A stretch of DNA of 64,000 nt, from positions 19,964,001 to 20,028,000 of the forward strand of contig JBHGNT010000008.1 of assembly GCA_043228905.1 (NCBI GenBank), given 5' to 3'. Under the pieces are notes generated by a model. That model made no database searches and was not told where the DNA came from. It saw only the letters and a program-made list of their open reading frames with translations. Origin of the DNA: Azolla caroliniana. Lineage: Eukaryota; Plantae; Polypodiophyta. Shown piece by piece: positions 2,849 to 34,000 of this stretch. The stretch's first letter is position 1. Every line of letters starts with the position of its first letter. The translations under genes were made by a program, and so were the position numbers.

Positions 2849-3719
2849 CACTATGTACAGAATCACACACATTTAAAACAAGTATATCTACTTTGTTGTA
2901 CATTATGATTTATAGTGCTTATAACTTTATGGGTCGAAGCATGCTACGGTGTACCAACTTTTGGCCAAAAATTTAGTACTAAATCGAAGAAGAAAATAAA
3001 CATTAAAAATTGTAAATAAATTTCAAAAAACAAAAAACAAATTCATTACGTCACACTCAAATGCACAAAGATATTATACGTCACACTCGAAATGTCCCTA
3101 GCCATATTTAATACATTAATTGTTGCCCCAGTCTCCTAGGTAGAGTTGTACGAAAGCACACCTGGAGAAGGTATCCATTGTGATAGTTGGTCAGTCTCAA
3201 TATCTCTCTCTCTCTCTCTCTCTGGTATGGGTAGTCGAACGTGTCAATTGGTATGTCTCTCTCTCTCACTCACTCACTCACTCACTCTCTCTCTCTCTCC
3301 TGTCTCGAAGTTGTCAGACAGACAGTGGCAGAAAGTTAAAGAAAGACGACATATCTATCACAAGTCTATCTCTCTCTTTCTCTCTCTCACTCCACCTTCG
3401 AAGCTCTGTTTCTTTCTTTCTTTCTGTTTCTCTCTCTCACTCCACCTTCGATTCTCTGTTTCCCCGCGTAGTTGTTCTTGTGTTCCCCTCTGTGCCAGGT
3501 TCGATCTCTGAACTCTGTATACACAGAGATTTTTGTTTCCCCTGCTCGTTGTATGTGTTGTTGATTTTCCTTCCTTGTGTATGCTCGTTTGTCTCCTCTG
3601 CAGCAGCCTCGTCAACAACCTCTTGCATATAGGTGATTTTGAAGGCTTGGTGTGCTCCCAAGGTGTCGAAATCAACACGGTGTGGTACCTCTGCAAGTTG
3701 TACGACCTCTAGGTATTCT

Positions 3720-4270
3720 CTTTGTTGCATGCCCAACTGGTATGTTTTCTTTTTCTAAATGTTTCCTGTCTGTCTGTTTTTTATTTGCATGTGTATGGCC
3801 ATTTTTAGGGTTTGATTATTCATAGTCTATGTGTTGCATGCCCAACTGGTATGTTTTTGTTTTCTCTGTGTTTCTGTGTTTCTTTTAAAAATGTATGACA
3901 ATATTTTGATCGAGGTGGTTGTGTGTTAGACATGTTTGTACATGCAACATAAATGGAGTTGGCTATGATGAGTTGCTATGTTTTCGTTTTGTTCTTGTTT
4001 CCTGTCCATCTGTTTTATTTTGTGTGAGTTTGACATGGATGAGTGTTTTTCCGACTATTTTGGGTTTTTGTGTGTTTGACATGGCTTGTACATGCGATGT
4101 GATGGAGTTGGCTATGATGATTTACAATGTTTTCGTTTTCTTTGACTTTTGTATCCGTCTGTTTTTATTGTCTGTGTATTTGACATGGATGAGTTTTTTT
4201 CCGACTATTTAGGGTTATTGTGTGTTTGACATGGTTTGTACATGCAATGTGATGATTTGCTATGTGTTGA
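3720..4270 (+). repeat. Degenerate tandem repeats in the presumed 5' intron of the Sola accessory gene
   Basis: GTTGCATGCCCAACTGGTATGTTTT twice; GTGTGTTTGACATGG.TTGTACATGC-like unit three times at ~150-bp spacing. Confidence 0.6.
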
Positions 4271-4338
4271 TCGTAATTGCTTGAGTTTTCTTCTAGTACA
4301 TGCATATTCATTCCCTGATAATTGTGTTGACTAGGACA

Positions 4339-7300
4339 ATGACGAGAAGGACACCCATAAAGAAGACATTGATGAAAGAGAAAGTGAAGACACCAGTGAA
4401 GGAAGGAAGAAGGACACCCATGAAAGAAAGCAAGAAGACACCCACAAGAGAAAGGGTGATGAATTCATCAACACAGAGAAAGAAGATGTACCACTCCATC
4501 AGTCGAGACACACCTCTTGGATGGAATTATTTCCTTCGAGCACGACCTGACGTTTATCCAGAGCTGAGAGAGTGGTTGTTAAAAACCTGGGGGTCAGCAC
4601 ATCCCGACACAAGGCGAGGATTCCACATAAGTGGTTTGAAGAGGGAATACATGAATTTATTGAAGACGAGATACGAACATGTTTATGATACAAATCAAAT
4701 CACTAACAATGAGGTGGGTACTGTTTTTGCACGTGCTTTTGCATGTGAAGTTCAAGGTGGCATTGACGTAAATTGGGAAGATTTTAATCGGCACCGGTCA
4801 GAACATTACAAAGGGTCCTCCAGTACCAACACTGGCTTGAAGTCATCTGGAACCTCTCATGTGGATATTCTAGCTATAACACCTATCCACCAAGTTCTAG
4901 AGGCAAAGGTACGGGCCACAATGACTGAAAAGCATGAACAAATGATGGCCGGTTGCATAGCTTCTATGAGCTCAAGAATACAAACACTACTTGCTGATTT
5001 GGAAGCAGTTAAATCAGCTGAGATACAGGCAGAAAAGAAATTTTCTTCAATAAAAACTACATATGAATGGATTGCATCGACAATCCAAAATTCGGAAAGT
5101 GAGGTGTTGAAAGAGGAGTTGAAGAAAGAGCTGAACAATATGGGCACTCAATTAGGTTCACAGATAAGAGACCTTGATACTTGCAGGAATGCACATGAAG
5201 AAATAGATAATAAGTTGTCAGCCTTAAAGTTGCATTCTGAGAACCTTGCATGCTTGATGCAGGATTTAAAACAAAATGGTTTTGATACTTTGTGTCCATC
5301 TGTAATTGAGCACCCAAGTGGTATAGAAAGTACCATTATTAGTATAGCTATATCACGGTATTGGCTTTAAAAGTTATTTATTTCTACTTCTCTGGTATAA
5401 ATAAGCGAGCAGCTAATATATTATAACTTGTGTTTGCAATCTTCCAGGTGTATATTTTGTGGCCTCGGATTCAAGTTGGAGGCTATGGATGTTGTGATTA
5501 CACCATGCTTGCACACATATCATGTGTTATGTGCTAAGTATCATTTTGAGAAAGAGAATACATGTATGGACTGTAAAACTACAATTGTGGCTGAGTGGTA
5601 CTATGCTTGGGGTTTAAAAGTACACCCATACGGTATGTGGCTCTACTATTCTATTGTTTGTATTATATGATGTCAATTAACATTTGGACTAGAACTAGTG
5701 TATGCCACAATTCATACTTCAAATTTAGTGTAATCTCTAACAACTATTATGTGGAACCCTAATTATGTGGGTTAGTATTGGCAGTACTCTTAATATATAA
5801 TTGGTATGTGTAGTTGAAGGGATATTTTCCAGAATTAGTAGTACTAAAAGGGAACCAGGTACAACATCGTCCAATCTATATTGCAACTTGCCTAGTATTA
5901 GTTTAGTAAACACTATACTTATAGTACACTGTTGACTGTTAGTATTGTTTGTGTAACTTGGGAATTAGTACTAGTAATGTAATTTGGGAACAAGGTGTAT
6001 AGTAAATTGCTGAATAATAGTACAATTATTGTAATTTGGAAATGAGGTGTGTCAAACACATATCACGTTTAGTACTAATATTGTTCAAGATTAATACTGT
6101 TGGTGTAATTAGTACAAGTTATGTAACTAGGTGTGTAGAACACATATCATGTTTAGTATTGCTTGTGTGCAAAATACCAATCTACATTTGTTGGATTAGT
6201 ACTTAGTAAGTACTACATGGTTCATGATTAGTACTAGTTCTGTACTTTGTGAACTAAGTTACTAGTACATTGCTCATGATTAATACTAGTTTTGTAATTT
6301 GGGAACTGAGTAGTACTTTGTTCCTTATTAGTACTAGTTTTGTACCTTATTAGTACTAGATCAGTAATCTAGAAAATAAGTGAGTAGTACATTTTGTAGG
6401 ATTAGTACTAATTGTGTAATTTGACTAAGTCAGTGGTACATTGTTGGTATAGTACATTGTTCAGGATTAGTACTAATTGTGTAATTTGACTAAGTCAGTG
6501 GTACATTGTTCGGGATTAGTACTCCTTGTGTAATTTGCTAACTAAGTGAGTAGTATATTGTGCATGATTAGTACTACTTGTGTAAATTGGGAACTAAGTG
6601 AGCATTACATTGTTCGGGATTAGTACTCCTTGTGTAATTTGGTAACTAAGTGAGTAGTATATTGTGCATGATTAGTACTACTTGTGTAAATTGGGAACTA
6701 AGTGAGCAGTACATTGTTCGGGATTAGTACTCCTTGTGTAATTTGGTAACTAAGTGAGTAGTATATTGTGCATGATTAGTACTACTTGTGTAAATTGGGA
6801 ACTAAGTGAGCATTACATTGTTCGAGATTAGTACTCCTTGTGTAATTTGGTAACTAAGTGAGTAGTATATTGTGCATGATTAGTACTACTTGTAAATTGG
6901 GAACTAAGTGAGCAGTACATTGTTCGGGATTAGTACTAGTTCAGTGATTTAGGAAATAAGTGAGTAGTACATTGTTCAAGATTAGTACTACTTATTAATT
7001 TGACTAAGTCAGTGGTACATTTTTCAGGATTAGTACTTGTGTAATTTGGTAACTAAGTGAGTAGTATATTGTGCATGATTAGTACTACTTGTGTATATTG
7101 TGCATGATTAGTACTAATCGTGTAAATTGGGAAGTAAGTGAGCAGTACAGTGTTCCTTATTAGTACTAGTTCAATAATTTAGGAACTATGTGAGTAGTAC
7201 ATTGTTCATGATTGGTACATTGTGTAAAATGGGAAGCAGCTCTTGTGACCTACATTATATATTTTAGATGATGGTACTAACATTCAAGGTTTTTTTGTTT

Positions 7301-9058
7301 CTTGCAATGAATGTTGTAGTGTCAAGCAACTCCACGCCAGGGAAGGTAATGGAACAACCAGCCCTTGTGCCTAAACCCTCAATATCTGTTGCACATTCCA
7401 AGGTTCAGGGACCATCATTACCAATAACCTATGATTTTTATGATGAGGATGAATGTATGAGAAGGGCCATTGGAGCAGTGGAACATATGCTTCTACAAAC
7501 AAATTTCCCAAGCTCCGGTCAACATCAAGAAATAGAGCCCAATAAGAAGAGAAATGCAGTTTCTTTACAAATAGAGCCCAGTAAGAAGAGAAATGCTGCA
7601 AGAATGTTGTATGGAAACGGCAAGAAAGGCAAAGTTGAATGCAATGGTGAGTCATATAAGTTCTCACCTGTCTGGAGCATTGTCAACCTAATCCATTGTC
7701 TAATACCATGTACTTGTGTTACTAGCTGATGATGAAATGATATTTGGTGACGGAGATACGAGTCCAAAACCTGATCATGAAGACGAATTTATCACACTCC
7801 CAGGTACACGTCAAAAGCTAGACTTTGAAAACAATGATTTAGCTCATAACAACCCTATTTTTGTTGTTATTATAGATCATAACAACATTGTTGAGCACCT
7901 AGATGTTGTGGAGAAGATGACCGAGCCCACCACTTGCAATGGGGTATCTACGGCTGTACAATATGACGATGTAATATTAGGTAAAAATGTGGCCCTAAAC
8001 CCTATGTTCATTGTTTGCAAACTTTTGAGTATGTGAGTTGATACCAATATTCTTTGGAATCCCATTAATTAGGTTTACAAGAGCAGTCTGATTCCCAAGT
8101 GCAATCAAATGAATCGGGAACTTCATGGAGCACAAGTGCAGAGTCAGATTCCCATCAGAGTCAGAATCAAATTAACCTTTGCAAGGAGGCAGACTCTGGA
8201 AGCACATCTTCCACACATGAGGATTGTGAGAAAAACGAAGCATTCATATGTGAAGAGCAATTGGCATGTACAAACAACACTATGTCTAAAGAAGCCTATG
8301 AGTGTGGAAAGAATATGGCAAGTACTGAAGAGAAGATTGAAGCCCATGAAGAGTGTGGAAAGAATATGGCAAGTACTGAAGAGAAGATTGAGGCCCATGA
8401 AGAGTGTGGAAAGAATATGGCAAGTACTGAAGAGAAGACTGATTGTACTGATAATGTGCTAGTACTGTCTAAAGATTCCCATGAGGATCATGGAAAGAAC
8501 ATTGCTAGTAATGAAGAGGATCGTGGAAAGAACATCGCTTTCCCTGAAGATAAGCCTGATTGTACAGAATCCCATGAGGAGTGTAGAGCGAACAACGTTA
8601 CTAATGAAGGTGGGCCTGATTGTACTCAGAGCGAAAAACGTTGTCTTAAGAATGAGGTGACATCCACCGTACAAGAGGAGTTGACCATGACTACTGCCAC
8701 GGTCCACATACAGGAGTCTAATAAGAACGAGTGTATAGGCATCGGTGATGATGATAGGGCAATAAAGATCGCTAGGAGTACAAGCATTCAGGAGATGAGT
8801 GATAATTTGCCTATCGACAGCACCTTTGTGGATTTGTGTACAAGCATTGCAGTTGCAGAAAACATAGTTGCTCTCTCAAGCTTGCCACCAGTACAAGGTG
8901 CCCGCGCATCCACGCCTGTCTCTGATGCCTCTGATGATGAAGTGCCACTTAGTCAGCTCATACCTAAAGGCTTTAAGATAAAGAAGAATGTAAAATTAGA
9001 AAAATCTGGCACCAACAAGCGCATTACAAGATCGTCCAAGTTACCCTCTAGTGCCTGA
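4339..9058 (+). CDS. Transposon-borne five-exon gene: coiled-coil + RING-H2 zinc finger + long acidic tail (~923 aa)
   Basis: Predicted exons 4339-5357, 5448-5632, 7320-7646, 7726-7980, 8073-9058. All introns GT-AG and phase-compatible (2,1,1,1); 2772 nt with no internal stop. Exon 2 encodes C-x2-C-x15-C-x-H-x2-H-x2-C-x10-C-x2-C. Confidence 0.75.
5950..7220 (+). repeat. AGTACT-rich intronic minisatellite (52-bp monomer, 104-bp dimer)
   Basis: ACTAAGTGAG recurs at 6541, 6593, 6645, 6697, 6749 and 6801 with alternating variants; monomers carry GATTAGTACT; the array decays on both sides. Confidence 0.9.
8298..8440 (+). repeat. 51-bp coding tandem repeat (ECGKNMASTEEKIEAHE, ~3 copies)
   Basis: Direct repeats visible in the DNA and in ORF 8099-9058; frame-preserving. 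Confidence 0.9.
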
Positions 9059-10112
9059 TTGTCTTTCGATTGTACTTGAACTTTAGTTGTTAGTGATGTC
9101 TGAAATTGAACTATTTGGATACCAAAATATTGTTTCAATTGCCAATGTAAAAAATCCAGTTCATGAATCTGAAATAGTTATACCAGTGTGAAATCAAGTT
9201 CATGTTTAAGGATTGCTTCTGTATTTTGCTCGTCAACATATATAAAAAACAATGGGAATATACTTTTTGATCTAAGTATTCTTATTTTACAACGTTTTGT
9301 TTCTTTTTTGAGATCATCTCCTAATCCTCGCAAAGTCTTTCAATCTATTATAGATAAAATGCTTGAAAGTCTTCTTAGCCAGAATGTGTGCAAATTGGAG
9401 GGTAACCAGAATGTGTGCAAATTGTTGAAGCAATGTGGGCCATATTTTGATGATATGATCCCAAAGGATGAACCATCCACTAACAATAGTAAGGAAACAC
9501 TTACCTTTTTGAGCTATCACAAATTATTGTTTCAGAAGTTGGATTATTTTGTTAAGGAAAGGAAGGTCTGTAATTTAAAATCCATAGCCTGGATATTCAG
9601 GACTTATATACAAGAAGTTAAAACTCAGATGGCTTCACAGGACATATCATGAAACAAAAAAGGATTCTGAGAGAATAATTTTCATTGTTGTCTTCACAGA
9701 ATTCATCGCCCCCTTTGAAGAATGAACTTACAGTAGAAAATCTTACAATATTAAAGTCTTTAATGAATTCAACTAACAATCTTCTCTTGGTAGCAAAAGA
9801 AGAGCAGATTTATGTGCCAACAGAGGACACACCAACTCTTATACAATATTTTTACTCATTTTAACATGGCTCTGCAAAACTCCTATGCTCAAATAACATC
9901 AAGAAACATGAGCAATATCGGCAATGAAGAAATCCAAGTCCTATTGACAACAGCTAATATATTATGAAAGATAAGTACAAGTGGTTGAGAGGCATAAACA
10001 CTTTGGAAGAAAGACGAAATATATCAATTCATTTGTCAATCATCAAAATTAATAGTGAACTCCAAGTGGATGTTTTTCAGTTTTCTGGTACAATGTATTG
10101 ATAGGGTGACTT

Positions 10113-13100
10113 TCAAGCATTAAATAGAGAGACCTCCCCTAATATGTGCTCATGAACCTCTTGGGGGACCTTGTAGACAGTGTTGTATCCCTTAACCTTG
10201 TGCTTTGCTTGAGTCATATTGAATTTGATCGCAAGAATGGCATCAGCGTAGATTATTGCGATGGGTGCTTCTTTTAGTAATGCATATGTGTTCTTGCACT
10301 GCGGCAACTTTGCATAATAGTTTCCATACACGATAGACTCACCAACGTTGAAATTGTTGCCCCAACCATCCCTCACCACTTCTTTCAATAATGTCTTTCC
10401 TTGCTTGCACACCACAATGTAGTAGTCTTCTAAATCTTCATTCTGAGGATATTTGAGCACTGCAAAATGATCTCCAACTTCCAATAAAACTGCCAAGTCT
10501 TGATTTTGGTTGTAGTATACAATATCGTTTGAATGCACATCCTCTTCAATATCATCTTGTCGTTCAAGCTCAAGCTTCTGTAGCTTCCAGGGCTCCAAGA
10601 TTGATAGGTTGATGCATTTATCCCAAGCTTCATCTAGACACATGGAACAAAAGCATGATAAACTACGGAGTAACAATTGGGTTGTGTCCTTGCGGCTAAA
10701 CCCTAACACACAATGGGTGCTGCGTGTGCCTTTCACGGTTTTACAACCATATGATTTAGTTATATATCGACCTCATCAGCGCGAACTTCAACAAACAATC
10801 TGTTCTTACCATCATTTGACATCTTCCATGTTAGCCACTGCACAACATCATGTGCATTTTGTAACTTAGCGCCATTATTATCCAACTACTCACTTGTAAG
10901 GGCACGTTTGATCACAGCCCCCGCGCCATCATGCTCTCCTTTTCCATGTCCAGACCCGAAGTAATTCCATTGCATGCGAATATTGAATAAGGAGAAATAC
11001 CTGCTTTGGTATCTCAGGTTTCCAACAAAATTAGTACTATGTTGTCAATTGAGAGTACTACACTTCCATTAATACTGATTTAGTACAAATACAAAACAAA
11101 GCATAGCACAATGTATCCATTGAGAACACTCTACACTTATTAAAAGATAAATAGTACTATGTTGTCGACCAACAGTACCTGGCATCCATTTAATACTAAC
11201 TTAGTATGGATATAGCACAAAGTATAGTACAATGAGTTCATGGAAAGCACTCTACATGTATTAACAAATAAATAGTACAAAATGTTCAATATCGGATAGT
11301 ACAATACAATGTGTCCATGGAGAACACAACCCTCCTTAGAAGATCATTAGTACTACAAGACATGTACTTTACATCCCCCAATAAACACTGATTTAGTATA
11401 GATACAACACATAGTACAATACAGTGTGTTCATGGAGAACGCTGAACATTGATTAATAGATAATCAGTACCACACAGTGTGTTTAAAAGATGAGTACAAG
11501 ATGAGTACAATACTATGAGTACAACATGAGTAAATACTGATTTAGTACAATTCTCTTAAGGACGGACAATACTATGAGTACAAGATGAGTACTTTACATC
11601 ATCCTATAAACACAACATAGTACAGATACAACACACAACATAGTACAATGTGTCTATGGAGAACCCTTCACATGGATTAAAACATAATTAGTACAATTCT
11701 CTTAAGGACGGACAATAATATAAGTACAAGATGAGTACTTTACATCATTTTGTAAACACAACATAGTATAGAACCAACACACAACATAGTACAATGTGTC
11801 TATGGAGAACACTTCACATGGATAAAAAGATAATTAGTACAATTCTCTTAAGGACGGACAATACTATGAGTACAAGATGAGTACTTTACATCCTTCTGTA
11901 AACACAACATAGTACAATGTGTCTATGGAGAACACTTCACGTGGATTAAAAGTTACTTAGTACAACATAATACAAACAAAATTAGTATGCATGCATCCAT
12001 TCACAAGTGCAAGATTCGAATAGTTACAAACATAATTAGTATGCATCCATGTGAATAGTATTGTTTGTTAATAGTTACAAACATAATTAGTATGCATCCA
12101 CTAACACAAGAATTACTTCCTTACACATTGCATGATAAGTACTAAACATATGGATTAAAAATTACCTGGCGATAAAGTAGAACGATCGTGCTGCCTTAAA
12201 CTGTGAGGCAGCACCATCAGACCAAACCCAATGACGGTTAAAGGTTAACCCTAGAGAAAATAAATCTGCATGGTGAAGCTTAAAACAATGTTGAACAAAT
12301 AGTGTATCATGCTTTTTATCATCTGAAATGTAAAATATTGATTTCTTATGTAACTCATCGTCTTGCCTCCAAATAGCAAATATGTACAAGTATTGTACAT
12401 TGATCATTGTACCAATGCATTGATTGAACCTCATTTTGAACTTTAAATGTATAGTTTTCTGCAAAATCAATAACGGATACGATGACACCCGTTGGTAAGT
12501 TATTAATACATTCCTTGAACTGTGAATTTTGCCAATAACTCCGAAAGTTATGTGGAATAAACTCCCCAAGTTGTTTATTAAATTCTGAGACAAGGGTAGC
12601 AACACATGTCTCCTTATATACTTCCTTGATACGCTTAGTTACAACTCCCTTGCCAATATTTTCAGTCACATACTCCAAATATTTCCATTTCACGATATGA
12701 CTATTTCCCATATCAAGCTCCTGCCTACAAAATAATGGTAGCGGACAAACCTTACATGTTCTTAATAGACATGTACGACGATGCCACTCACATGATGGTT
12801 CTTTTTCACAAACACAAGACCTCCATAGCTCAGAAACGGATGCATAAGTCATGTTTCGTGCATTACACCTATTATCCTCCCCATTTGGTCTACAAATCTC
12901 ACAAGTGCAGACACATAATTTCCCGTGTATACCCTTAGAATCAGTACGCATTGCATTCACTGCTAGCCTTAACATGTCCATCTTCACATGGTACACACAA
13001 CAACATGTATTCCTCTCATTTAATTTACTAACATAAAATGGTTTCAAACCTTGGAACTTGCGGAATCCAACAGTCAAGCTTGGATGTTGGTCTTTAAAGT

Positions 13101-13832
13101 TCATGTACAATTCAGCCTACATCAACCAATATATATAACAAACATTAATATACACTTGGTCAAAACACAAAGTTATGGAATGTGAATTGATATAAAAAAA
13201 TGGAATACCTCTGTCATCTCCAAGAAGTGTCTAGGGTGAATCTGGTACTTACCCTGACTTATTCGTTGTCTACACACGTCCTTCTTATTTGGTGAGACAC
13301 GCGTATTTTTGGCCCAAAATGAATCCACTTTCTCAATAATCTATTGAGATAAGGCATCACATCGTCGTCTACGTCCCGACCCCAGCCACTTGAATTTGCT
13401 TGAGTGTATATTTCGGCGATGTTTCCTCAAGTTCCTTCTTTGAATACCCAGGGCTAAGGCAACTTTAGTATCACTATATTTTTTTTCTCTCGCACCGTTC
13501 ACAACCATGTGTAGGGCTGCCCTCTTTGCAGCAAGTTTGTCTAAGCTCTCTACACCTTTCACTAAGTCTAGGGATGACTTCATAGACTCCACAATCTCTT
13601 CTGAAACACATTGGTCCCTAAATTTTATTCTCTCCATGTCTTCATTCAAACTTTGATGGTGTAACACTCTACAAATAATATCCCTACGATCCTCTTCACT
13701 AAATCTCTTCGTTATTTCTACCAAATAAACTATGTGAAGAACCAGTCGTCTCTTGTTCCTTTCAGATATGCATGAGTTACTTGACAACTCACTCTCGTTA
13801 GGAACCCCCATTCGGTCACTAGATTTATCCAC
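10113..13832 (-). pseudogene. Sola2-type DDD transposase, spliced, disabled
   Basis: Exons ~13832-13209, 13116-12166, 11000-10113 with GT-AG introns. Motifs SPNKKD, CCCVYH, VIDFAENY, QSMHW, ISDDKKHD, WSDGAASQFK, FGSGHGKGEHDGAGA, C-terminal SCFCSMC. In-frame TAG stops near 13341 and 10886; frameshifts near 12372 and ~10780. Confidence 0.88.
11030..12150. repeat. AGTAC-rich intronic repeats with a 146-bp tandem core
   Basis: TTAGTACAATTCTCTTAAGGACGGACAATA at 11542, 11688 and 11834; AGTAC is dense throughout intron 11001-12165. Confidence 0.85.
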
Positions 13833-16384
13833 AAAAATTAAGTGTCTTGCGAAAGTAGTTAATGTTATATAGACTCAACCAAGAAAACACAATCAAATGT
13901 TTTTAAATGTGGCCTGCAAAGTGAGAAATATTTTGTTTCAAACATTAGAATTACATATCAAATATGACAAATGTCAATTCTAAAAATTTAGTACTGAAAT
14001 ATGAAGAAATGAAACATTTTAGTACTGAAAATAAAAAAATGGATGGAAGGAACCTCCAATGGTGGAGGGAGCGTTGGATATGCCGCCTCGATTTGGTAGA
14101 AGGAACCTCCAATGCCGCCTCGATTTGGTGGAAAAAGCCCCAAATCACCACGACATCAACTGCAATCAGTGGAAGTAAGAAAGTCGTTGTCGAAGAAGTG
14201 ACTATTGGCTGCTACCTAAACCCTCAAAACAGTCTTTGTACCTCAACCTAAACCTAACAAAAACAGAAACCCTAAAAAAATCAGAAATCCTCAACTCAAA
14301 CTCTCCAACCAGACATGGATGTCTGAGATTTAGATTGAAGGAGAATCAGAAACGTGACATGGATGTTTGTCATGAAAAGCTCAGAGGGATAGAGGAAGAG
14401 CAGTATGAGGGGAAGCGCCAAAATCGACGTGAGGGGAAAATAGCCCCCAAAATGGAAGAACATCTCCTCACGTGTTCCCCCCACTCCTTCTACAATAAAT
14501 GACACTTGTACTACAGTCACCCCACTCTCCAAAATCGATTTCCTTTTTCTCTAATTTTTTTTCTGGATTATTCAGTACTAACAGTATTGAAAGTACTGAC
14601 AAATTTTGTGGCCAAAAACAGTACTTTTCTGGTACACCGTAGCGTGCTTTGACCCTTATATGCAAGAATTATACATCTATGTATCGAAATATTTTAAAAC
14701 CCACTTACAAGCACTTTTGTTTTTACACCACTCGTATAAAGGTGAGTGGTTTTCCCTACCACATGGTAAGCACACCACTCAAAAGTAATCCCCTTAAAAT
14801 TGATTGACCTCCACACAATTGGAGTTAGACTGTAGACTAAAGCAATTGACAAAAGGGCAACTTTGTATTTCCATGGTGCCAAGAGGGCTCAAGAGAGAAT
14901 TGTTTATTGTTGCAGTTGATCATTATATATGGAGGGGCTTGGGCTTCTAACTAGCCTAAGCTATGTGGCTAACTATGGGAAATTTTATGTGGAGGCTAAA
15001 TGTTATTGAAAAATTATTATGTTAGCTCAATATCATGTAATTGTTTTAGTGTTTGTTACCAATATGGAACATTGTCTATCTTCAGTCCTTCGAGATAGAC
15101 CTCAAGGGGATTGTGTGGCAAGGTATGACACCACACGAGGCGTGAGCCGTTATCTGTCAGTTATGTAATAATGTGTATCTATGGGTGAAGGTTCACGACT
15201 ACGATCGAGAACTTGAGTGCGCTACTACGCTGACTCTTACCCTACGCTGACACTTACGAATAGCACAAAGATTACACAAGACAGCACGGGTTGCACAGAC
15301 ACAAAGAATCAAAGAAGATAAGATTCTATTAGAAAAAAAAACCTCACGCTCCAAAATTACACGCTACCTCTTACAGAGGATTTCTGCCCTTTATATACAC
15401 AGGGCGTTCAGCCGGTCACGCTTCTCGCGTGAACCGTTACATCTATTTCCTTAACGGTTCTAATACATTTTTCATATTTCACGCATTTATGTCCGGCGGT
15501 TACAATTCTGGTGGACAACATCTGGCACGCCTGGGGAACAGTTTTGAGCTTCTTCCAAGGTTTTCGTGAGTTTTTTGATTTCTCACTTATTAACCCTAGC
15601 CGCTTCCTCACTTATCTTTGCCCATATCTGGGATTCTTTCACATGTAGTTCCTCTAGCCGGCCCATTTCATTGTTCATGTGGACTTCTACTTGATGCGTC
15701 ACCTCGCGTTCTTGTACGAGCTGCTCATCGTACCACGCTTTCTTCTTTTCCAATAACTCTCGGAGTCTGGTGAGATTGTCGCTTCCGACTTTTGGGTTTC
15801 CTTCAGTAGCTTCTTGTTTTCTTCTTTCATGCTGGTGTGCGATGTCATGAAGATTTTCGGCAACAGTATGAGAATTGTGTGCAACGAACGAAATCGAGAA
15901 GGTGCAATGTGGACATGTGAAAGGGGTGAAGGCCACACGCATATGCTAGCATGTTGTAAATAGGATTGAAATGAGAATCGTAAAAGAAAAGCTAGATGAA
16001 AAGTTAAACATGTGCACATGTGATGTGCGCTCAATTGTAAATATAAAATTAAAACTAAAGCCTAGTAACATCTAAGTGCATACATAGGGTGGACGCTAGG
16101 CTTGAACCTTGCACCTCCAAGATAGGAGACAAATTAAGTTACCACTAAAGCCACTAATGAGTGCTTTAAAATTTGTATTTTTTTTTTTCATATTCAGTAT
16201 TTTGTAGGAAGCAAACATATAGAAACCGTGGGCGCAAAACCATGGTTCTAGCTCGTGGGTTTAACCCATGGTTTTTGCATGGAGAGACCTATAAATGCCT
16301 ATAGTTGGGCTTGTGTAAGAGGGAAGTGGTGTAAGTAAGAAAGAAACTTTTAATCAAAGATCTGAGTTCTCCTAATGGTGATTT

Positions 16385-17102
16385 TGTTGAGAACTTGACG
16401 TTCCTTATGTCCCACGCTCGGCGGCAACCGAGATTCTTTACATACACAGAAAAACAGGTAATTAAACGCGACACAAAAGAGGAGAAATGATACACAGGAG
16501 GTATACGTGGAAAACCCCAAAATAGGGGAAAAACCACGGCAGCCCACAAGCTGCAAACTGTCACTATGTAGGAATATACAACAGTGAGATCACTGAGGCA
16601 ACGACCTCGTGCTCTCAGATCTTCGCCACAAGCGGCGGTTACAACAGAGGCAACGACCTCGTCTCTCTCTTTCTCTCTCTCTCTCTCTCTGCACAGTTAC
16701 GTGCTCTGACTTCTTCTTGCACCAACAAGAAATAATAACCACACAAAAACAACAACACTACAAAATTGCCCTAAGTCATATTTATACTAATATGACTTTT
16801 CAGCTATTTACAAATGTAGCCTCGATGGGCTCCATCCGACTCTCCGTAGTCGGGTACTCCCCATCCGGCTCTCCGCAGTCGGGTACTCCTCATCCGGTTC
16901 ATACCGGGCCTACACCATCCGACTCTCCGCAGTCGGGTACTCCTCATCCGGTTCATACCGGGCCTACACCATCCGACTCTCCGCAGTCGGGTACTCCCCA
17001 TCCGGTTCATACCGGTTCGGCCTCGGCCTGTCGGCCTCGGCCGAGTTTGTTCGTCGGCACCGTTCTTCTACCTTCCCATCCGGAGGGACCTGTTTCCCAA
17101 CA
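16385..17102 (-). mobile_element. Solo LTR, copia family C-related (718 bp)
   Basis: TG..CA ends and GATTT TSD (16380-16384, 17103-17107). Empty site at ~31945-31952. Shares GTCCCTCCGGATGGG and TATAAATATGACTTAGGGCAA with the 22128 LTR; contains three 57-bp repeats. Confidence 0.93.
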
Positions 17103-17152
17103 GATTTATCTTGTCTCGTAAAACTAAAGTCAAGGGTTCAATCTCAATCTCA

Positions 17153-17155
<3 letters not shown>

Positions 17156-17230
<75 letters not shown>

Positions 17231-17231
17231 C
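17156..17231. repeat. (CT)n microsatellite
   Basis: Direct reading. Confidence 0.95.
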
Positions 17232-18067
17232 TCATCTATCTATCTATCTTCAATACTTTCTCGCTTACATTGCTAAAAACATCGAATCCTTCTGGTCTAG
17301 GATCCCGGTGGTCCCGCTTCATTTCGCGAACACAGGAGGATTTCCTCGACGTCTTACTTGGTGAACCTGACATGAAAGAGGCGGTAGGAAGGATCCAGTC
17401 GAGGATCGACCGATACTTGCAAATGGCATCCTCAAGTAATCAAGTGGGAGAATTCGAAAGGATGATGCTAATCATCGAACTTACCCATTCATCAAAAGTA
17501 AAATAAAAATAAAAAAATATGATAAAAAATAGAGTTTTAAGCTAAATAGTTCTAGTAAAATAACAAAGATGTTCTATATAAACAACATGGTCTACAATGA
17601 AAATGATGTTATACTAGGCCTAATTTCATTTCCATCAAGTCTTTCGAAGAGAAGCGGGAGGTCAAAGGGTTTCGATGTGGATGTGGCCCGTGGTCCCAAT
17701 GTAAAAATTACCCCAACCATAGCATCTAGTCGACGTAGCTCACGTTCCCTTATCTTCTTAATCTTTTGTAGTCCGTGTCGACTGGTTTTGAAGCCCAACA
17801 TCCGAGGACGTTTGGTTGTTCTTTGCATTTTGGCTTCCTCAAGAGATAGGTTGAGCGACGTAATTGTATCCATATTTATCGTCTCCCCTTGTTCCTGAAA
17901 AATTATACTAGTTACAAGTTGATGAATAGTAAAAGGGTTATGGTTAACACTTTGTAATTTATTCTCCCTATGTTGTTTTAGCTCTAAGATATATCTAGCT
18001 AGTCACTAGACATCTGGGGTATCTAATAGTTTGGAGAGGGTCGTAACATGTCTTGGTATTACGCCCG

Positions 18068-18090
18068 GAGAGAGAGAGAGAGAGAGAGAG

Positions 18091-18149
<59 letters not shown>

Positions 18150-18170
18150 AAGACAGAGAGAGAGAGAGAG
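18068..18170. repeat. Compound (GA)n(GT)n microsatellite
   Basis: Direct reading. Confidence 0.95.
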
Positions 18171-18286
18171 AATTGAAAGGAAAGTATTATATTGCACTGT
18201 AAGATAGATTACAAAGAGTAGGGAGCAGAGAGCTATAGAATGACGTTGAACTAATTTGGTTTTGGGATGATTGATAGATCCCTATT

Positions 18287-18710
18287 TGTTGAGCGGCAAG
18301 CTCAATTGGAGCCAAATCGGTTGAATAAGCCTGACCCGATGAGTGACACGGATCGGTGAGCCGATGAGCACCAAGTGAGCAAAAGAGCCGGTGAGTTAGG
18401 GAGCCGGTTAGCCGGATCCATCAGTAACCGGAAGCCTGGTAGCAGCTAGACTACTAGGGAGTTAATACTCTCGTAGTTAGTGTCAGACGCTCGAGTGAGC
18501 ATTGAAGTACACCGTACTTCTGTCAGTCCGTATGGACTTGTATAAAAGTGTTCGTTGAACACTTACGATCTACAGAGTGTTGATATAATTTTTGAATAGA
18601 GATTCTTGTTCTCTCTCTCTATCTCTCTGTCTCTCCTGTGTACTGTTAAGTTCTCCATTAAACCCTTTTCTCTGTTCTCTGTTCTTTGTTTTCTGTTATT
18701 TGTTTTTACA
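18287..18710 (+). repeat. copia B 5' LTR (inverted duplicate of 30416-30845)
   Basis: TGTTGAGCGG..TGTTTTTACA, preceded by CTATT (reverse complement of AATAG) and followed by a PBS variant. Confidence 0.92.
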
Positions 18711-19332
18711 TAGTATCAGACTTGTGTTTTTACGATGTGTTTAGTGAACACTTTTATACAAGTCCATACGGACTGACAGAAGTACGGTGTACTTCAATGC
18801 TCACTCGGGCGTCTGACACTAACTACGAGAGTATTAACTCCCTAGTAGTGTAGCTGCTACCAGGCTTCCGGTTACTGATGGATCCGGCTAACCGGCTCCC
18901 TAACTCACCGGCTCTTTTGCTCACTTGGTGCTCATCGGCTTATCGATCCGTCTCACTCACCGGCTCAGGCTTATTCAACCGATCTGGCTCCAATTGAGCT
19001 TGCCGCTTCCGCACGCTATTTGTTTTTACATGGTCTCAGAGTTGTGTTTTTACGATGTGTTTAGTGAACACTTTTATACAAGTCCATACGGACTGACAGA
19101 AGTACGGTGTACTTCAATGCTCACTCGGGCGTCTGACACTAACTACAAGAGTAATAACTCCCTAGTAGTCTAGCTACTACTAGGATTCCGGTTACTGATG
19201 GATCCGGCTCACCAGCTCGCCAGCTCACCGACTCTTTTGCTCACCGGGTGCTCACCGGCTCGATGATCCGTCTCGGTCACCGGCTCAGGCTTATTCAGCC
19301 GATCCGGCTCCAATTGAGCTTGCCGCTCAACA

Positions 19333-22127
19333 AGGCGGATCGGCCCCATGGGCATGGTTGACGAGGCGGGTCAGCACGCAATGGAGACGGCCGGCAAGGA
19401 CAAGACTGACGGCACAGAGACCGCGTACACAACAGCTCCAGGACTTCCACAAGCAGGGGTAGTCAAGGTGGAGCCGGAGGTTGGCAAGACAAAGCCGCCA
19501 CGGAATGCTGGTATTGTGGCAAAAAGGGCCACACAGAAATCAAGTGCTGGAAGAAGCGCGCCGATTCGGATAGATCTGGATCCGGAAAAACCGGTCAGGA
19601 GAACTAACAAAGCTCGCATTACACGCAAGGATCAAAAGGATCCGGAACCAGGAAGACCGGTAAGGGGCCATCCTTGGTGATGAAGCACAAGGCAAACTTG
19701 ATGAACAAGACCACTTCCAAATCGGAGGAAGTGTGGTACGTTGATTCTGGTGCGTCAAATCACATGATGAGCCACAAAGAGTGGTTCTCTTTCTTGGAGA
19801 AACCGGAACAACCGGGAGTTGTCGAAACTGGAGACGACACTCCTCACCCAATTGTGCATGTCAGAGAAGTTCCCCTGAGCAACATCGGACAGAGGGGGAA
19901 GCTGATGAACGTATTACACATTTCGACTATCACGAAGAACCTGGTGTTGGTCGGACAGATCTTCGATCAGGGAATGCAGGTGCGGGTTACGCACCTTGGG
20001 TGTTTCATCGAGGAGGAGGGCCAGACTATCGCGCAAGGGTGCAGAGATGGGAGGATGTTCATCCTCGACACCAATGACGTCAGCACCACCTTGTTCGCCA
20101 AAGGACAGAAGGTCGAATCGGACATCGACCTGTGGCACAAGCGGATCGGCCATGTCAATTACCGATAGCTTCAAGACTTGCAAACGAAACAAGTTGTTTT
20201 CGGTTTGCCGAAGTTTAGTGGCCGGAAGGCCCAAGTATGTGATACCGGCCAACTTGGGAAGCAACAACGGCTTACATTCCCCGCCGAATGAAACCGTAGC
20301 CGTAACAAGCTCGACCTTATTCATTGGGATGTATGGGGACCGGCACAGAAAGTGAGTCTTGGCGGGAGTTGATACTTGAGCGGAAGAGCCAAGTCTTCGA
20401 CTGTTTCCGGAACCTCCAAAGCATGGTGGAATGGGAATCAGAGAGGAAGATCAAGTGCCTGCGGTCAGATGGCGGAAAAGAATATTTTTCTGGCCAATTA
20501 AACAGTTATCTGCAGCAAACAAGAATCCGGAGAGAGTTCAGCTGCAGATACACACCTGAGCAAAACGGTGTGGCGGAAAGGAAGAATCGGTCGCTTGTCA
20601 ACGTGGCAAGGGCAATGCTAGAAGAGAAGAGCATGCCCCATTTCTACTGGGCAGAGGTGGTCCGGATGACCGTCTACATCCAAAACCGGATCGGTGACAA
20701 GGTGTCCGCGCATGAGCTGTATTTCGGGCGCAAGCCAAATTTGAGACACCTTCGGATTTTCGGCAGCATAGCATATGTGCATGTGCCGGATGAGAAGCGG
20801 AAGAAGCTGGATGCAAAATCGGAGAAGTGCATCCTCGTCGGCTACTCACATGAGCAAAAGGGGTATAAGTGTTATAATCCCCAGACGAAGCAGGTCCGAG
20901 TTTGTTGCGATGTTGAGTTTGATGAGATGGCATCATGGTATGCCTTACCAGCTCCGACTTCTGACCCCGACCCGATACCGGAAGATGAGGCTAGTGAACC
21001 TGAACCGGAACAGTTAGAAGATGATGAATTTGGGACTCAAGAAGAGAATCCGGAATAGTTTCGGTCGAGTGGGCCGAACGAGAGACTGGGTCAATCCGAC
21101 CAGTCAGAAGAAGAACCAGTGAGTAGTGAAGACTGTGCGGTGCTCTCCCTGCACAAGGAATCAAGGAGAGGGTTCACGTGCAAAGCGAAGGGGAAGAAGA
21201 AGATGCCGGATTATGAAACCGGTAATGATGAGTCGGATTAGAGCGGATCTAACTCCGGACAGGAAAATGAAGAATTTTCGACACTGAAGACAGAACCGGC
21301 CAAGAAGGGCCTCAAACCGGGTAATGGTGGGTTACGCCGGTCAACCCGCCAGAAGGAACCTGTTAAGCGGTACGGGTACAATGAGTACATGGCGCATCAC
21401 TATGCGTACATGACCAAGGTGGCGGAAGTGCGTGAGCCGGAGAGCTACGCAGAAGCGGCAAAGGATGCACATTGGCATGCCGTTATGGAAGAAGAGATGC
21501 GGGCACTTCATGCCAACGATACATGGAACCTGGTTGACCCTCCCCGTTACAATAAACTGATCAGATGCAAGTGGGTGTACAAGGTAAAGTACAACGCCGA
21601 CGGTTCAGTTAACCGATACAAGGCCCGGTTAGTGGCAAAGGGATACGCACAGACCCACGGAATCGACTACGACGAGACCTTCACTCAGGTAGGGAAGATG
21701 ATGACGGTTTGTGTGGTGCTGGCGGTTGCAGCGGCAAGGGGCTGGCATCTTCACCAAATGGATGTGAAGAATGCATTTCTTCAAGGAGATCTTGAAGAAG
21801 AGGTCTTTATGATACAACCCCCCAGTTTCCAGACGGAGATGAACAAGTCGACGGTATGGCGGCTAAAGAAGTCACTTTATGGCCTGAAGCAAGCCCCCCA
21901 AGCTTGGAATGCGAAGATCACGCACCGGTTGCGTAAGATGGGGTTTGCGGCCTCCAAGTCTGACTCTTCGTTGTTCATCTGGCAAGGTCTGGACGGTCCG
22001 GTTTGCATCTTGTTGTACGTTGATGATCAGGTCATCACCGGACCCAGACTCGATGAAATCAGCCGAGTCAAGTCCCAGTTGTCGGATGCGTTTGAGATGA
22101 AGGACCTGCGGGACCTTGACTATTTCC
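19333..22127 (+). pseudogene. copia B gag C-terminus/protease/integrase/RT N-terminus, degenerate
   Basis: Zinc knuckle CWYCGKKGH, WYVDSGAS, LWHKRIGH, LRSDGGKEY, PEQNGVAER, YKARLVAKG, LLYVDD; several stops and frameshifts. Confidence 0.92.
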
Positions 22128-22896
22128 TGTTGGGATTTCGGTCCCTCCGGATGGGATGTCCGGAGATGAATGACGGCAAGCCCGGTTGCGGTTACGGAAC
22201 CGGATGATGAAGAGTACCCGGCATGAAGCCGGATAAAGAGTACCCGGATACGGAGCCGGATGATGAAGACCCCGGTTACGGAGCCGGATGATGAAGACCC
22301 CGGTTACGGAGCCGGATGCTGAAGACCCCGGTTACGGAGCCGGATGATGAAGACCCCGGTTACGGAGCCGGATGATGAAGACCCCGGTTACGGAGCCGGA
22401 TGCTGAAGACCCCGGTTACGGAGCCGGATGACGAATGTACCCGGAGAGAGATCCGGATGCGGGGACATATTTGTGAATATGTTTGCCAAGAGCCCTTGAG
22501 GCTATATTTGTAAATAGCCCAAAAGTCATATGTGTATAAATATGACTTAGGGCAAACAGTCTTATGTTGTTGCTCATTTTCTGTTTTCCACGAAGAGGGA
22601 GCGAAGTGAGAGCAGCCGAGAGAGTGTGAGAGACGAAGAGGTCGTTGCCTCAGTGTATTACCGCCGCCTGTGGCGAAGACTGTGAGCTCAAGGTTGTTGC
22701 CTTGTAGCTTCATCATTGTACATCTCTGCATATAGTGATAGTTGGAGTTTGAGGACTCCCGTGGTTTTTCCCACTTAGGGTTTTCCACGTAAAATATCCT
22801 GTGCACTCTTCTCCCCATTATCTTCGTGTATTTGTAATTCCTGTTTTCTGAAAGTTAATCCTATTTCTCGGTTGTGGCCGAGCACTGCGTATAACA
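22128..22896 (+). repeat. 5' LTR with a 28-bp tandem array (ACGGAGCCGGATGATGAAGACCCCGGTT, ~6 copies)
   Basis: TGTTG..TAACA ends, TATAAATA near 22535, array ~22248-22430. Confidence 0.96.
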
Positions 22897-22899
22897 AAT

Positions 22900-22911
22900 T
22901 GGTATCAGAGC
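22900..22911 (+). promoter_or_regulatory. Primer-binding site (initiator tRNA-Met)
   Basis: TGGTATCAGAGC 3 nt after the 5' LTR. Confidence 0.95.
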
Positions 22912-22927
22912 GACGGTAACACAGAAA

Positions 22928-26974: not shown

Positions 26975-26982
26975 AGGGGGAG
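26973..26982 (+). promoter_or_regulatory. Polypurine tract
   Basis: GAAGGGGGAG just before the 3' LTR. Confidence 0.92.
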
Positions 26983-26984
26983 TT

Positions 26985-27753
26985 TGTTGGGATTTCGGTC
27001 CCTCCGGATGGGATGTCCGGAGATGAATGACGGCAAGCCCGGTTGCGGTTACGGAACCGGATGATGAAGAGTACCCGGCATGAAGCCGGATAAAGAGTAC
27101 CCGGATACGGAGCCGGATGATGAAGACCCCGGTTACGGAGCCGGATGATGAAGACCCCGGTTACGGAGCCGGATGCTGAAGACCCCGGTTACGGAGCCGG
27201 ATGATGAAGACCCCGGTTACGGAGCCGGATGATGAAGACCCCGGTTACGGAGCCGGATGCTGAAGACCCCGGTTACGGAGCCGGATGACGAATGTACCCG
27301 GAGAGAGATCCGGATGCGGGGACATATTTGTGAATATGTTTGCCAAGAGCCCTTGAGGCTATATTTGTAAATAGCCCAAAAGTCATATGTGTATAAATAT
27401 GACTTAGGGCAAACAGTCTTATGTTGTTGCTCATTTTCTGTTTTCCACGAAGAGGGAGCGAAGTGAGAGCAGCCGAGAGAGTGTGAGAGACGAAGAGGTC
27501 GTTGCCTCAGTGTATTACCGCCGCCTGTGGCGAAGACTGTGAGCTCAAGGTTGTTGCCTTGTAGCTTCATCATTGTACATCTCTGCATATAGTGATAGTT
27601 GGAGTTTGAGGACTCCCGTGGTTTTTCCCACTTAGGGTTTTCCACGTAAAATATCCTGTGCACTCTTCTCCCCATTATCTTCGTGTATTTGTAATTCCTG
27701 TTTTCTGAAAGTTAATCCTATTTCTCGGTTGTGGCCGAGCACTGCGTATAACA
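26985..27753 (+). repeat. 3' LTR of the intact copia
   Basis: Direct copy of 22128-22896 at offset 4857. Confidence 0.96.
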
Positions 27754-29080: not shown

Positions 29081-29233
29081 GGTGCGTAGAACAAGAGGGG
29101 TCGTGACAAACAGAACCGGACCGGACGAGGAGCGCGAGCAAGGCGGAGTGACGCTAGAAGGAGTCGGGCAGAAGGACCGGTTGCCACAGATGTTGACACT
29201 ACGATCGGACCTCAAGTTGACCTCAAGGGGGAG

Positions 29234-30113: not shown

Positions 30114-30391
30114 TGTTGAGCGGCAAGCTCAATTGGAGCCGGATCGGCTGAATAAGCCTGAGCCGGTGAGCGAGACGGATCATCGAGCCGGTGAGCACCC
30201 GGTGAGCAAAAGAGTCGGTGAGCTGGGGAGCCGGTTAGCCGGATCCATCAGTAACCGGAAGCCTAGTAGTAGCTACACTACTAGGGAGTTATTACTCTTG
30301 TAGTTAGTGTCAGACGCCCCAGTGAGCATTGAAGTACACCGTACTTCTGTCAGTCCGTATGGACTTGTATAAAAGTGTTCACTAAACACAT
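30114..30391 (+). repeat. Partial copia B LTR (variant 2, 5' part)
   Basis: Starts TGTTGAGCGG after CGCCT (30109-30113) and is fused to an inverted PBS/leader. Confidence 0.88.
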
Positions 30392-30404
30392 CGTAAAAAC
30401 ACAA

Positions 30405-31005: not shown

Positions 31006-31050
<45 letters not shown>

Positions 31051-34000
31051 GGCGGAATACCAAGACATATTAGAACCCTCTCCAAACTATTAGATACCCC
31101 GGATGTAAAGTTACTAGGTAGGTATATCTTAGAGCTAAAACAACATAGGGAGAATAAATTACAAAGTGTTAACCATAACCCTTTTACTATTCATCAACAT
31201 GTAACTAGTATAATTTTTCAGGAACAAGGGGAGACGATAAATGTGGATACAATTACGCCGCTCAACCTCTCTCTTGAGGAAGCCAAAATGCAAAGAACAA
31301 CCAAACGTCCTCGGATGTTGGGCTTCAAAACAAGTCGACACGGACTACAAAAGATTAAGAAGATAAGGGAACGTGAGCTACGTCGACTAGACGCTATGGT
31401 TGGGGTACCTTTTACATTGGGACCACGGGCCACATCCACATCGAAACCCTTTGACCTCCCGCTTCTCTTCGAAAGACTTGATGGAAATGAAATTAGGCCT
31501 AGTATAACATCATTTTCATTGTAGACCATGTTTTTTATATAGAACATCTTTGTTATTTTACTAGAACTATTTAGCTTAAAACTCTATTTTTTATCGTTTT
31601 TTTTATTTTTATTTTACTTTTGATGAATGGGTAAGTTCGATGATTAGCATCATCCTTTCGAATTCTCCCGCTTGATTACTTGAGGATGCCATCTCCAAGT
31701 ATCGGTCGATCCTCGACTGGATCCTTCCTACCGCCTCTTTCATGTCAGGTTCACCAAGTAAGATGTCAAGGAAATCCTCTTGTGTTCGCGAAATGAAGCG
31801 GGACCACCGGGATCCTAGACCAGAAGGATTCGATGTTTTTAGCAATGTAAGTGAGAAAGTATTGAAGATAGATAGATAGATGAAGAGAGAGAGAGAGAGA
31901 GAGAGATTGAGATTGAACCCTTTACTTTAGTTTTACGAGACAAGATAAATTACCATTAGGATAACTCAGATCTTTGATTAAAATTTTCTTTTTTACTTAC
32001 ATCACTTCCCTCTTACACAAGCCCAACTATAGGCATTTATCGGTCTCTCCATGCAAAAACCATGGGTTAAACCCACGAGCTAGAACCATGGTTTTGCGCC
32101 CACGGTTTCTATATGTTTGCTTCCTACAAAATACTGAATATGAAAAGAAAATATACAAATTTTAAAGCACTCAGTAGTGGCTTTAGTGGTAACTTAATTT
32201 GTCTCCTATCTTGGAGGTGCAAGGTTCAAGCCTAGCTTCCACCCTATGTATGCACTTAGATGTTACTAGGCTTTAGTTTTAATTTTATATTTACAATTGA
32301 GCGCACATCACACGTGCACATGTTTAACTTTACATCTAGCTTTTCTTTTACGATCCTCATTTCAATCCTATTTACAATATGCTAGCATATGCGTGTGGCC
32401 TTCACCCCTTTCACACGTCCACATTGCACCTTCTTGATTTCGTTCGTTGCACACAATTCTCATACTGTTGCCGAAAATCTTCACGACATCGCACACCAAC
32501 ACGAAACAAGAAAACAAGAAGCTACTAGAGGAAACCCAAAAGTCGGAAGCGGCGATCACCGGACTCCGAGAGTTATTGGAAAAGAAGAAAGTTGTGGTAC
32601 GACGAGCAGCTCGTACAAGAACGCGAGGTCACGCATCAGGTAGAAGTCCACATGAACAATGAAATGGGCCGGCTAGAGGAACTACATGTGAAAGAATCCC
32701 ATATATGGACAAAGATAAGTGAGGAAGCGGCTAGGGTTAATAAGTGAGAAATCAAAAAACTCACAAAAACCCTGGAAGAAGCGCAAAACTGTCCCACAGG
32801 CGTGCCAGGTGTTGTCCGCCAGAATTGTAACCGCCGGATATAAATGCGTAAAATATGAAAAATGTATTAGAATCGTTAAAGAGATGTAACGGTTCACGCG
32901 AGAAGCGTGACCGGCTGAACACCCTGTGTATATAAAGGGCAGAAATCCTCTGTAAGAGGTAGCGTGTAATTTTGGAGCGTGAGGTTTTTTTTTCTAATAG
33001 AATCTTATCTTCTTTGATTCTCTATGTCTATACAAGCCGTGCTGTCTTGTGTAATCTTTGTGCTATTCGTAAGTGTCAGCGTAGGGTAAGAGTCAGCGTA
33101 GTAGCGCACTCAAGTTCTCGATCGTAGTCGTGAACCTTCACCCATAGATACGCATTATTACATAACTGACGGATTACAGCTCACGCCTCGTGTGGTGTCA
33201 TACCTTGCCACACAATCCCCTTGAGGTTTATCTCGAAGGACTGAAGATAGACAGTGTTCCATATTGGTAACAAACACTAAAACAATTACATGATATTGAG
33301 CTAACATAATAATTTTTCAATAACATTTAGCCTCCACATAAAATTTCCCATAGTTAGCCACATAGCTTAGGCTAGTTAGAAGCCCATGCCCCTCCATATA
33401 TAATGATCAACTGCAACAATAAACAATTCTCTCTTGAGCCCTCTTGGCACCATGGAAATACAAAGTTGCCCTTTTGTCAATTGATTTAGTCTACAGTCTA
33501 ACTCCAATTGTGTGGAGGTCAATCAATTTTAAGGGGATTACTTTTGAGTGGTGTGCTTACCAGGTGGTAGGGAAAACCACTCACCTTTATACGAGTGGTG
33601 TAAAAACAAAAGTGCTTGTAAGTGGGTTCTAAAATATTTCGATACATAGATGTATAATTCTTGCATATAAAGTTATAAGCACTATAAATCATAATGTACA
33701 ACAAAGTAGATATACTTGTTGTAAATGTGTGTGATTCTGTACATAGTGCTACATGAGAAAAGCCATAAATCTAGAGATACGTAGATGTCAAATTAGAACC
33801 AAGTTTCAGAAATGAAAAAAGTGATCTATTTTCTAATGTACCGGTAAAAGAAATATTGTTCCTCAATGTATTACAAAAACTGTAAATGTATTCGTTGATG
33901 TTAAAAATATATCTCCAAAGGGTATGTATGGAATATAGTTCTACAAATTAATTTTAAAAAATGTTTTTCGTACAATCTCTTAAGGTTCTAGTTTAAAAAT

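Follow-up and report, generated by a model that had tools for sequence, protein, structure and literature searches.

Sola2 DNA transposons have GRG at their termini according to the rule given in the first Sola description, the mudrA and mudrB genes of MuDR are convergent, and the VANDALs are Mutator-like elements. In published accounts Sola2 is characterised by a DDD transposase motif run, an AT-rich 4-bp target site duplication (TSD) and short terminal inverted repeats (TIRs) (PMC3627910, PMC10741241), and the TSD given for the amoebozoan Sola2 families is AWWT (PMC3627910). All three characters are found in an element which is described here from a 64,000-nucleotide stretch of Azolla caroliniana (assembly GCA_043228905.1, contig JBHGNT010000008.1, positions 19,964,001 to 20,028,000), hereafter the window, whose own numbering is used throughout. 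The element (Table 1) has a spliced transposase gene on the minus strand and, converging with it on the plus strand, a second gene encoding a predicted RING-H2 protein. The Sola2-Fanzor1 elements of Dictyostelium and Polysphondylium likewise combine a Sola2 transposase with a second gene and have transposase-less derivatives, but their cargo is TnpB-like and their ends and TIR lengths are different (PMC3627910). Sola1-1_Ec32 of Ectocarpus also has an opposite-strand accessory gene, for which action on the element's own DNA has been proposed, but it belongs to Sola1, is 21.5 kb long and encodes ParB-like and DNA methyltransferase proteins without a RING (PMC12477816). In mosses and ferns, Sola elements of 10-11 kb with ends similar to those of the window element were reported in a 2025 survey, without accessory annotation in the parts considered here (PMC12973397).

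The two 26-bp TIRs are identical at 24 of 26 positions (GGG...CCC), a match with a chance probability of about 4e-12 at two fixed borders, and the GGG ends agree with the GRG rule. TTAT is found beyond both TIRs; it is AT-rich and 4 bp long, yet not a strict AWWT as in the amoebozoan families. Besides the two ends, no copy of the TIR with up to 5 mismatches was found across the window. The joined flanks of the element aligned to an inverted paralogue at 31947-33749 with 96.4% identity over 1809 columns and one TTAT. Since the other arm of the inverted duplication holds the same flanks with one TTAT, the insertion is real and younger than the duplication, and both the GGG/CCC TIRs and the TSD with an empty site of the original prediction were confirmed. 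The contig pieces listed for sequencing run X1 differed from the window copy by 0-6 letters per 140-530, and the sequence comparison points to a young insertion. Two contigs of run X19 carried different flanks before the left TIR (2931). An artefact or chance repeat was ruled out by the empty site together with the depth and the homologues given below.

The three transposase exons aligned to 5 homologues with 30-68% identity in pieces, and a search with exon 2 found 20 homologues among 174 candidates (35-49% identity), including proteins of Klebsormidium and Ceratodon. Compared by eye, the motif run RVSP..KD, N.CCC.YH, DFAENY...QS.HW, ISDD..HD, SDGAASQFK, HGKGEHDG has the order of the published Sola2 alignment (PMC3627910, additional file 10), and the DDD motifs of Sola2 (DF.ENY, QS.HW, ISD...HD, SDG...QFK, HGK...DG) were recognised, with the aspartates in DFAENY, SDGAASQFK and HGKGEHDG. 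A transposase of Sola2 type is thus supported motif by motif; the earlier claim of a spliced DDD transposase on the minus strand was confirmed, and that of its place within Sola2 was supported. The window copy is a transposase-dead member of a multi-copy Sola2-type family, with two stops and two frame breaks. At the first stop (13343) nearly all contig depth in four of four DNA runs differed from the window copy, as did most of it at the frame break near 12371 where listed, and the family therefore has or had working transposase copies.

The C-terminal 215 residues of the transposase were modelled with a predicted local distance difference test score (pLDDT) of 83.7. In a fold search, the top 10 of 48,161 chains were BAH-bearing, six by title and four presumably, with Z scores of 5.3-6.5 (below 8), root mean square deviations of 2.8-3.9 and 78-94 aligned residues. 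The two best Foldseek matches were also BAH proteins (E 0.014 and 0.065), and no Pfam match was found for the region. At these middling scores the modelled C-terminus is a candidate BAH-like domain. The region of the predicted beta-rich domain (10113-10520, minus strand) was present in most homologues, and the domain may be lineage-wide.

The plus-strand gene had been predicted with five exons. Its presence, its convergent direction and its RING-H2 held, whereas the five-exon model was ruled out by seven coding exons, all GT-AG, in a single intact frame of 914 amino acids (aa). Among eight metagenome loci that were fetched for comparison, L003 kept all 11 of the splice sites covered, L007 kept 6 of its 7 and the broken L002 kept 3 of its 5. 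The encoded protein starts with a basic segment (36% K+R in aa 1-50), followed by a compact helical domain, most of which was modelled at pLDDT 85-95, then by a coiled-coil hairpin of two helices and a RING-H2 with the pattern C-x2-C-x15-C-x-H-x2-H-x2-C-x11-C-x2-C, which makes it a predicted candidate ubiquitin ligase. The homologue P0044 passed the zf-RING_11 threshold of Pfam (27.3 against a cut-off of 27). Fold searches with the whole exon-1 model were dominated by the hairpin and uninformative for the helical N-domain. A comparison of the N-domain with the transposase profile (probability 0.6%) gave no sign of a derivation from the transposase such as that of TnpA. A Fanzor, ParB or methyltransferase cargo was rejected, no such Pfam family being found at E up to 1 in five second-gene stretches. 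The spacer between the two stop codons holds a 159-codon open frame (9173-9652) without a Pfam match; DNA depth over the spacer was reduced in three of the four runs, and its length varied among copies. It may be a 3′ untranslated region, a further exon or a captured piece.

Altogether 20 listed sequencing runs matched the window or part of it, 14 of them with half its words or more, from 12 studies; RNA runs were absent among the index-listed holders of the stretch. Four DNA runs from three organisms covered all 30 bins. In three of the four, single contigs over the two genes had like depth, about 40-200x that of the right flank, contig depth being a rough guide only to copy number: in X1 the second gene had 124 and 144, the transposase 156 and 134 and the flank 3; in X5 the values were 1846, 1646 and 31; and in X9 the second gene had 2955, 2166, 2397 and 2553, the transposase 2975 and 2133 and the flank bin 12.6. 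Two of the eight metagenome loci (L002 and L005) had a second gene 83% alike, then the transposase 3′ end on the opposite strand, convergent and joined to it by one internal deletion; none of the eight extends to a TIR. In X5, a deletion derivative (depth 838, joint 8259 to 14485) was without the whole transposase and kept most of the second gene. The plus-strand gene is accordingly present in other family members and is no one-off capture, and a two-gene element at the family level is very likely. From conservation and linkage, the latter seen only within a group of close species, we infer that the second gene is a dedicated accessory.

In a full search of 1.84 billion representatives the second protein had 30 relatives; a profile search of 6558 candidates yielded 7. 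Only five of the 20 relatives looked up had an organism name, all of them hypothetical proteins of Adiantum nelumboides; these models are partial, have scattered locus tags and look like transposon debris. By their affiliation, the host of the element is likely a fern. The protein searches gave no named cellular gene homologous to the second gene, a weak search with exon 1 among proteins of 595-2000 aa had no match, and neither relatives nor the TIR were found in viral contigs and prokaryote genomes. The order N-domain, coil, RING was kept down to 22% identity (P0044 and P0061), and in the Adiantum model P0036 the coil is joined directly to the RING. Distinct exon-1 sequences grouped into clusters with 31 members at 96% identity, 37 at 62% and 12 at 60%, and in the 60% subfamilies unspliced gene calls mostly end at the end of exon 1. 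A tree of 22 exon-1 proteins, used only for subfamily grouping because of long-branch warnings, separated three subfamilies near the window copy from a farther group containing the Adiantum models.

Over aa 1-401 of the second gene, the ratio of nonsynonymous to synonymous divergence (dN/dS) was 0.24-0.47 in all eight metagenome loci, similar to the transposase control (0.37 and 0.41). For L001 and L003 it was 0.24 and 0.27 at only 3.5-5.7% synonymous divergence. At the level of codon substitutions the second gene is thus shown to be under purifying selection. These low ratios between close copies argue against a host RING gene that was captured long ago and is carried passively (Pack-type), in which case the signs of selection and the RNA would come from a host or domesticated copy. 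Passive capture would fit the part of the RNA that comes from a 62%-identical type, the many broken copies and the singleton RING domains recorded in accessory proteins from MULE, CACTA and hAT clusters (PMC12973397, Table S6, as far as covered). It is nevertheless improbable, given a whole gene with start, seven exons and stop instead of a fragment, the debris-like character of the five named homologues and the lack of a named cellular counterpart in the searches above. The second gene is probably kept because of a service to the element.

What this service might be is suggested by the introns. Tandem arrays make up both second-gene intron 3 and transposase intron 2; their units differ and no sequence can be aligned between them, yet each array is dense in TAGTAC(T/A). 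GTAC was found 43 times in intron 3 (simulated mean 13, maximum 23 of 200), 30 times in transposase intron 2 (mean 9, maximum 20) and 8 times near the right end (mean 1.4, maximum 5); the left end was not enriched (3, mean 1.1). In L007 an unalignable intron still carries the motif 9 times. The arrays could be slippage by-products if the gene were selected by the element for a broad effect on the host, such as genome-wide degradation of a silencing or defence protein or biased transmission. RING ligases act on proteins in trans and AT-rich introns often grow arrays, both of which fit this explanation; we regard it as quite improbable, since one core motif is common to two unrelated arrays and to a third intron that cannot be aligned, and since broad anti-silencing is described as rare in plants in the sections of PMC12973397 covered here.

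A parallel is offered by the VANC proteins, which bind motifs in tandem repeats of VANDAL introns and have repeat-bearing variable regions (PMC5735166). By analogy, the second protein would act on the element itself by binding the TAGTAC(T/A) motifs arrayed in both introns; the helical N-domain would be the DNA-binding part, and the RING-H2, as a predicted ubiquitin ligase, would loosen host silencing at the arrays. Such motif-guided anti-silencing is tentative, falling somewhat short of an even chance, and an anti-silencing role with a RING effector is favoured, with the same reserve, over a MURB-like partner of the transposase. In the latter case the second protein would bind the transposase by its N-domain or coiled coil, the RING would tune turnover or repair at the cut, the arrays would be transposase sites and the BAH-like domain would read chromatin. 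The convergent two-gene layout, the depth of about 1:1 and the enrichment of the motif near the right TIR are consistent with a partner; MURA binds MURB directly, such pairs are cited for Harbinger and CACTA, and GTAC words occur near the end of catalogued moss Sola elements (PMC12973397 and its Table S2, in part). Most motifs, however, are intronic and 3-4 kb into the element, a place where cutting does not need them, and a MURB-like partner is rather unlikely. The X5 derivative keeping most of the second gene without a transposase is required by neither the partner nor the anti-silencing reading. The fullest version of the anti-silencing proposal holds that in fern and moss Sola2 an N-domain/RING-H2 fusion docks on intron TAGTAC arrays and strips silencing factors and that the BAH-like domain of the transposase reads histone marks, by a route arisen apart from VANC, TnpA and the methylase-carrying Sola1; taken as a whole, it is unlikely.

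Transcription was followed in three polyA runs of organism B, of which about 12% each was read. Over the second gene and the spacer the first mates were minus-strand, and over the transposase they were plus-strand; given the usual stranded protocol, the transcripts of both genes are convergent. No reads fell within the two large introns. The donor of transposase intron 2, at the end of exon 2 (12166), was used in one contig of run X19 (depth 2.7), which joins it to 7953, a site in the second gene in antisense direction; this is a hint of read-through splicing.

Several observations weigh against motif-guided anti-silencing. Pfam zf-RING_2 matched the second protein at E 4.5e-05 with 24.1 bits, below the cut-off of 27.3. 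The helical N-domain gave no match above noise to Pfam, solved sequences or ESM Atlas clusters, and its DNA-binding role is for this reason a guess: its profile had 3 chance-level matches among solved sequences (E 0.6-0.7), and the ESM Atlas yielded coiled-coil look-alikes and, at 0.77, a single Streptophyta cluster without a name, the N-domain alone giving no usable match. The dN/dS of the tail was 0.85 against L003 and 0.30 in the other comparison, stops occur within aa 1-401 in four of the eight loci, and methylation-driven transitions can inflate the synonymous divergence. L002 and L005 have stops and one deletion in common and so count as one copy. Because tandem amplification inflates motif counts, the simulated null is a weak one. 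Being also near the right end, the motif could be the transposase's own site, and transposases able to activate their own copies have been described (bioRxiv 10.64898/2026.08.24.746577, in part). The RNA was sparse (105, 76 and 150 reads of about 12 million records each). Most reads were 90-95% alike to the window copy and came from relatives, 73-89% of them ran on into unlike sequence, and 9 reads at 4973 continued as the 62%-identical P0051 type. The predicted splice junctions were borne out by RNA for transposase intron 1, which 7 reads with 7 start places skipped in run X23 only (one of four runs); of the second gene no junction was seen.

Table 1. Features of the Sola2-type element and of its empty site, in window coordinates
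Feature	Position	Strand	Remarks
Whole element	2931-14655		Sola2-type DNA transposon, 26-bp TIRs and TTAT TSD
Left TSD, TTAT	2927..2930	+	same TTAT beyond right TIR
Left TIR, 26 bp	2931..2956	+	GGG start
Second gene, coding exon 1	4339..5357	+	basic N-terminus, helical domain (~aa 58-157), coiled-coil hairpin (~aa 197-313)
Second gene, exon 2	5448..5632	+	RING-H2 (C3H2C3, aa 341-382)
Second gene, exon 3, predicted	5814..5858	+	GT-AG, open frame; both sites kept in L003
Second gene, intron 3	5859..7319	+	52/104-bp tandem array rich in ATTAGTAC(T/A)
Second gene, exons 4-6, predicted	7320-7646, 7726-7803, 7876-7980	+	
Second gene, exon 7	8073..9058	+	acidic tail, 17-aa tandem repeats, basic end
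Spacer between both stop codons	9059..10112	.	deepest plus-strand RNA signal, likely 3′ untranslated
Transposase exon 3	10113..11000	-	HGKG..D motif, third Asp 10930; predicted C-terminal BAH-like domain; stop 10888, frame break near 10763
Transposase intron 2	11001..12165	-	146-bp and about 120-bp repeats rich in TAGTACAA
Transposase exon 2	12166..13116	-	cysteine clusters, DFAENY (Asp 12468), SDG (Asp 12218); frame break near 12371
Transposase exon 1	13209..13811	-	stop at 13343 private to window copy
Right TIR, 26 bp	14630..14655	-	
Right TSD, TTAT	14656..14659	+	
Empty paralogous site, single TTAT	33659..33670	-	other arm of inverted duplication

The inverted duplication (14644-19438 and 30008-33749) that hosts the insertion has arms 94-97% alike, encloses long terminal repeat (LTR) elements and is possibly a large foldback structure. 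A Copia-type LTR retrotransposon at 22128-27753 was inserted very recently into an older copia element: its two 769-bp LTRs are identical, its open frame spans 1359 codons and TTTCC is its likely 5-bp duplication. Both orientations of a very high-copy repeat (about 280-670 bp) occur at 2186-2849, 18286-19333, 29007-29678 and 30113-30846, with a depth far above that of the Sola2 element in four of four DNA runs. Two-copy tandem duplications of 398 and 263 bp (56572-57371 and 62689-63214), exact or nearly so, are either recent or assembly artefacts, and an open frame with a zf-RVT domain at 40326-41042 is a fragment of a long interspersed nuclear element.

A family that offers a single candidate effector, a single candidate target motif and an intact gene would permit a direct test of ubiquitin use for transposon activity, in a plant group with large, repeat-rich genomes. 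Proven transposon counter-defences against plant silencing are few (PMC12973397, in the parts covered). The N-domain, confidently modelled and unclassified, is a potential new module for sequence-specific DNA binding. Should the second gene prove to be only passive cargo, the element would still usefully extend the annotation of a plant superfamily that is poorly catalogued.

The original prediction had compared the layout with MuDR and considered the element a novel plant Sola2 lineage. The first comparison holds for the two genes pointing inward from the ends, as described for mudrA/mudrB (PMC12973397, in part); it fails for the transposase superfamily, MuDR having a MULE transposase, and for the ends, with long TIRs and a 7-12 bp TSD in MuDR (PMC10741241, in part) against a 26-bp TIR and a 4-bp TSD here. 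With the VANDAL/VANC system (PMC5735166 and PMC10398659, in part) the element shares a short motif in non-coding, intronic tandem repeats and an accessory protein that combines a conserved core with a variable part bearing repeats, the 17-aa repeats of the tail being comparable to the VANC variable regions. Motif binding has been shown for VANC and is a prediction for the window element; the transposase has Sola2 motifs and no MULE Pfam match, in contrast to a Mutator-type VANDAL transposase, and no likeness of the second protein to VANC proteins was found.

As to novelty, the seven-exon RING gene, the intron motif arrays and the predicted BAH-like C-terminus are additions to known Sola2, none being mentioned for the group in the parts of PMC3627910 and PMC10741241 considered here. 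No description of this RING cargo, of the arrays or of a Sola2 transposase with a BAH-like domain was found in a literature search whose scope was outside Repbase, the original Sola paper and the complete sequences of PMC12973397 Table S2, all of which may bear on novelty; the covered parts of PMC5751038, 10.1101/2021.09.26.461848 and 10.1101/2021.11.30.470311 were silent on this cargo and on BAH domains of transposases. The closest catalogued relatives are the moss and fern Sola clusters 4006-4009 (PMC12973397, Table S2, in part), which resemble the window element in TIRs of 26-32 bp, a 4-bp TSD and lengths of 9.9-11.2 kb. The covered listings give the Sola domain alone for these clusters, with no Sola row in the accessory-domain table. 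Three of their representatives have a GGG start with TTTTGGC-like words just inside, and the TIR of the Ceratodon cluster 4006 shares, by eye, 18 of 26 positions with that of the window element. The claim of a novel two-gene plant Sola2 thus stands for the RING cargo, of which no report was found, and is weakened for the arrangement: because Sola elements with second genes (Fanzor1; ParB-methylase) are already known, the layout is less new than the cargo.

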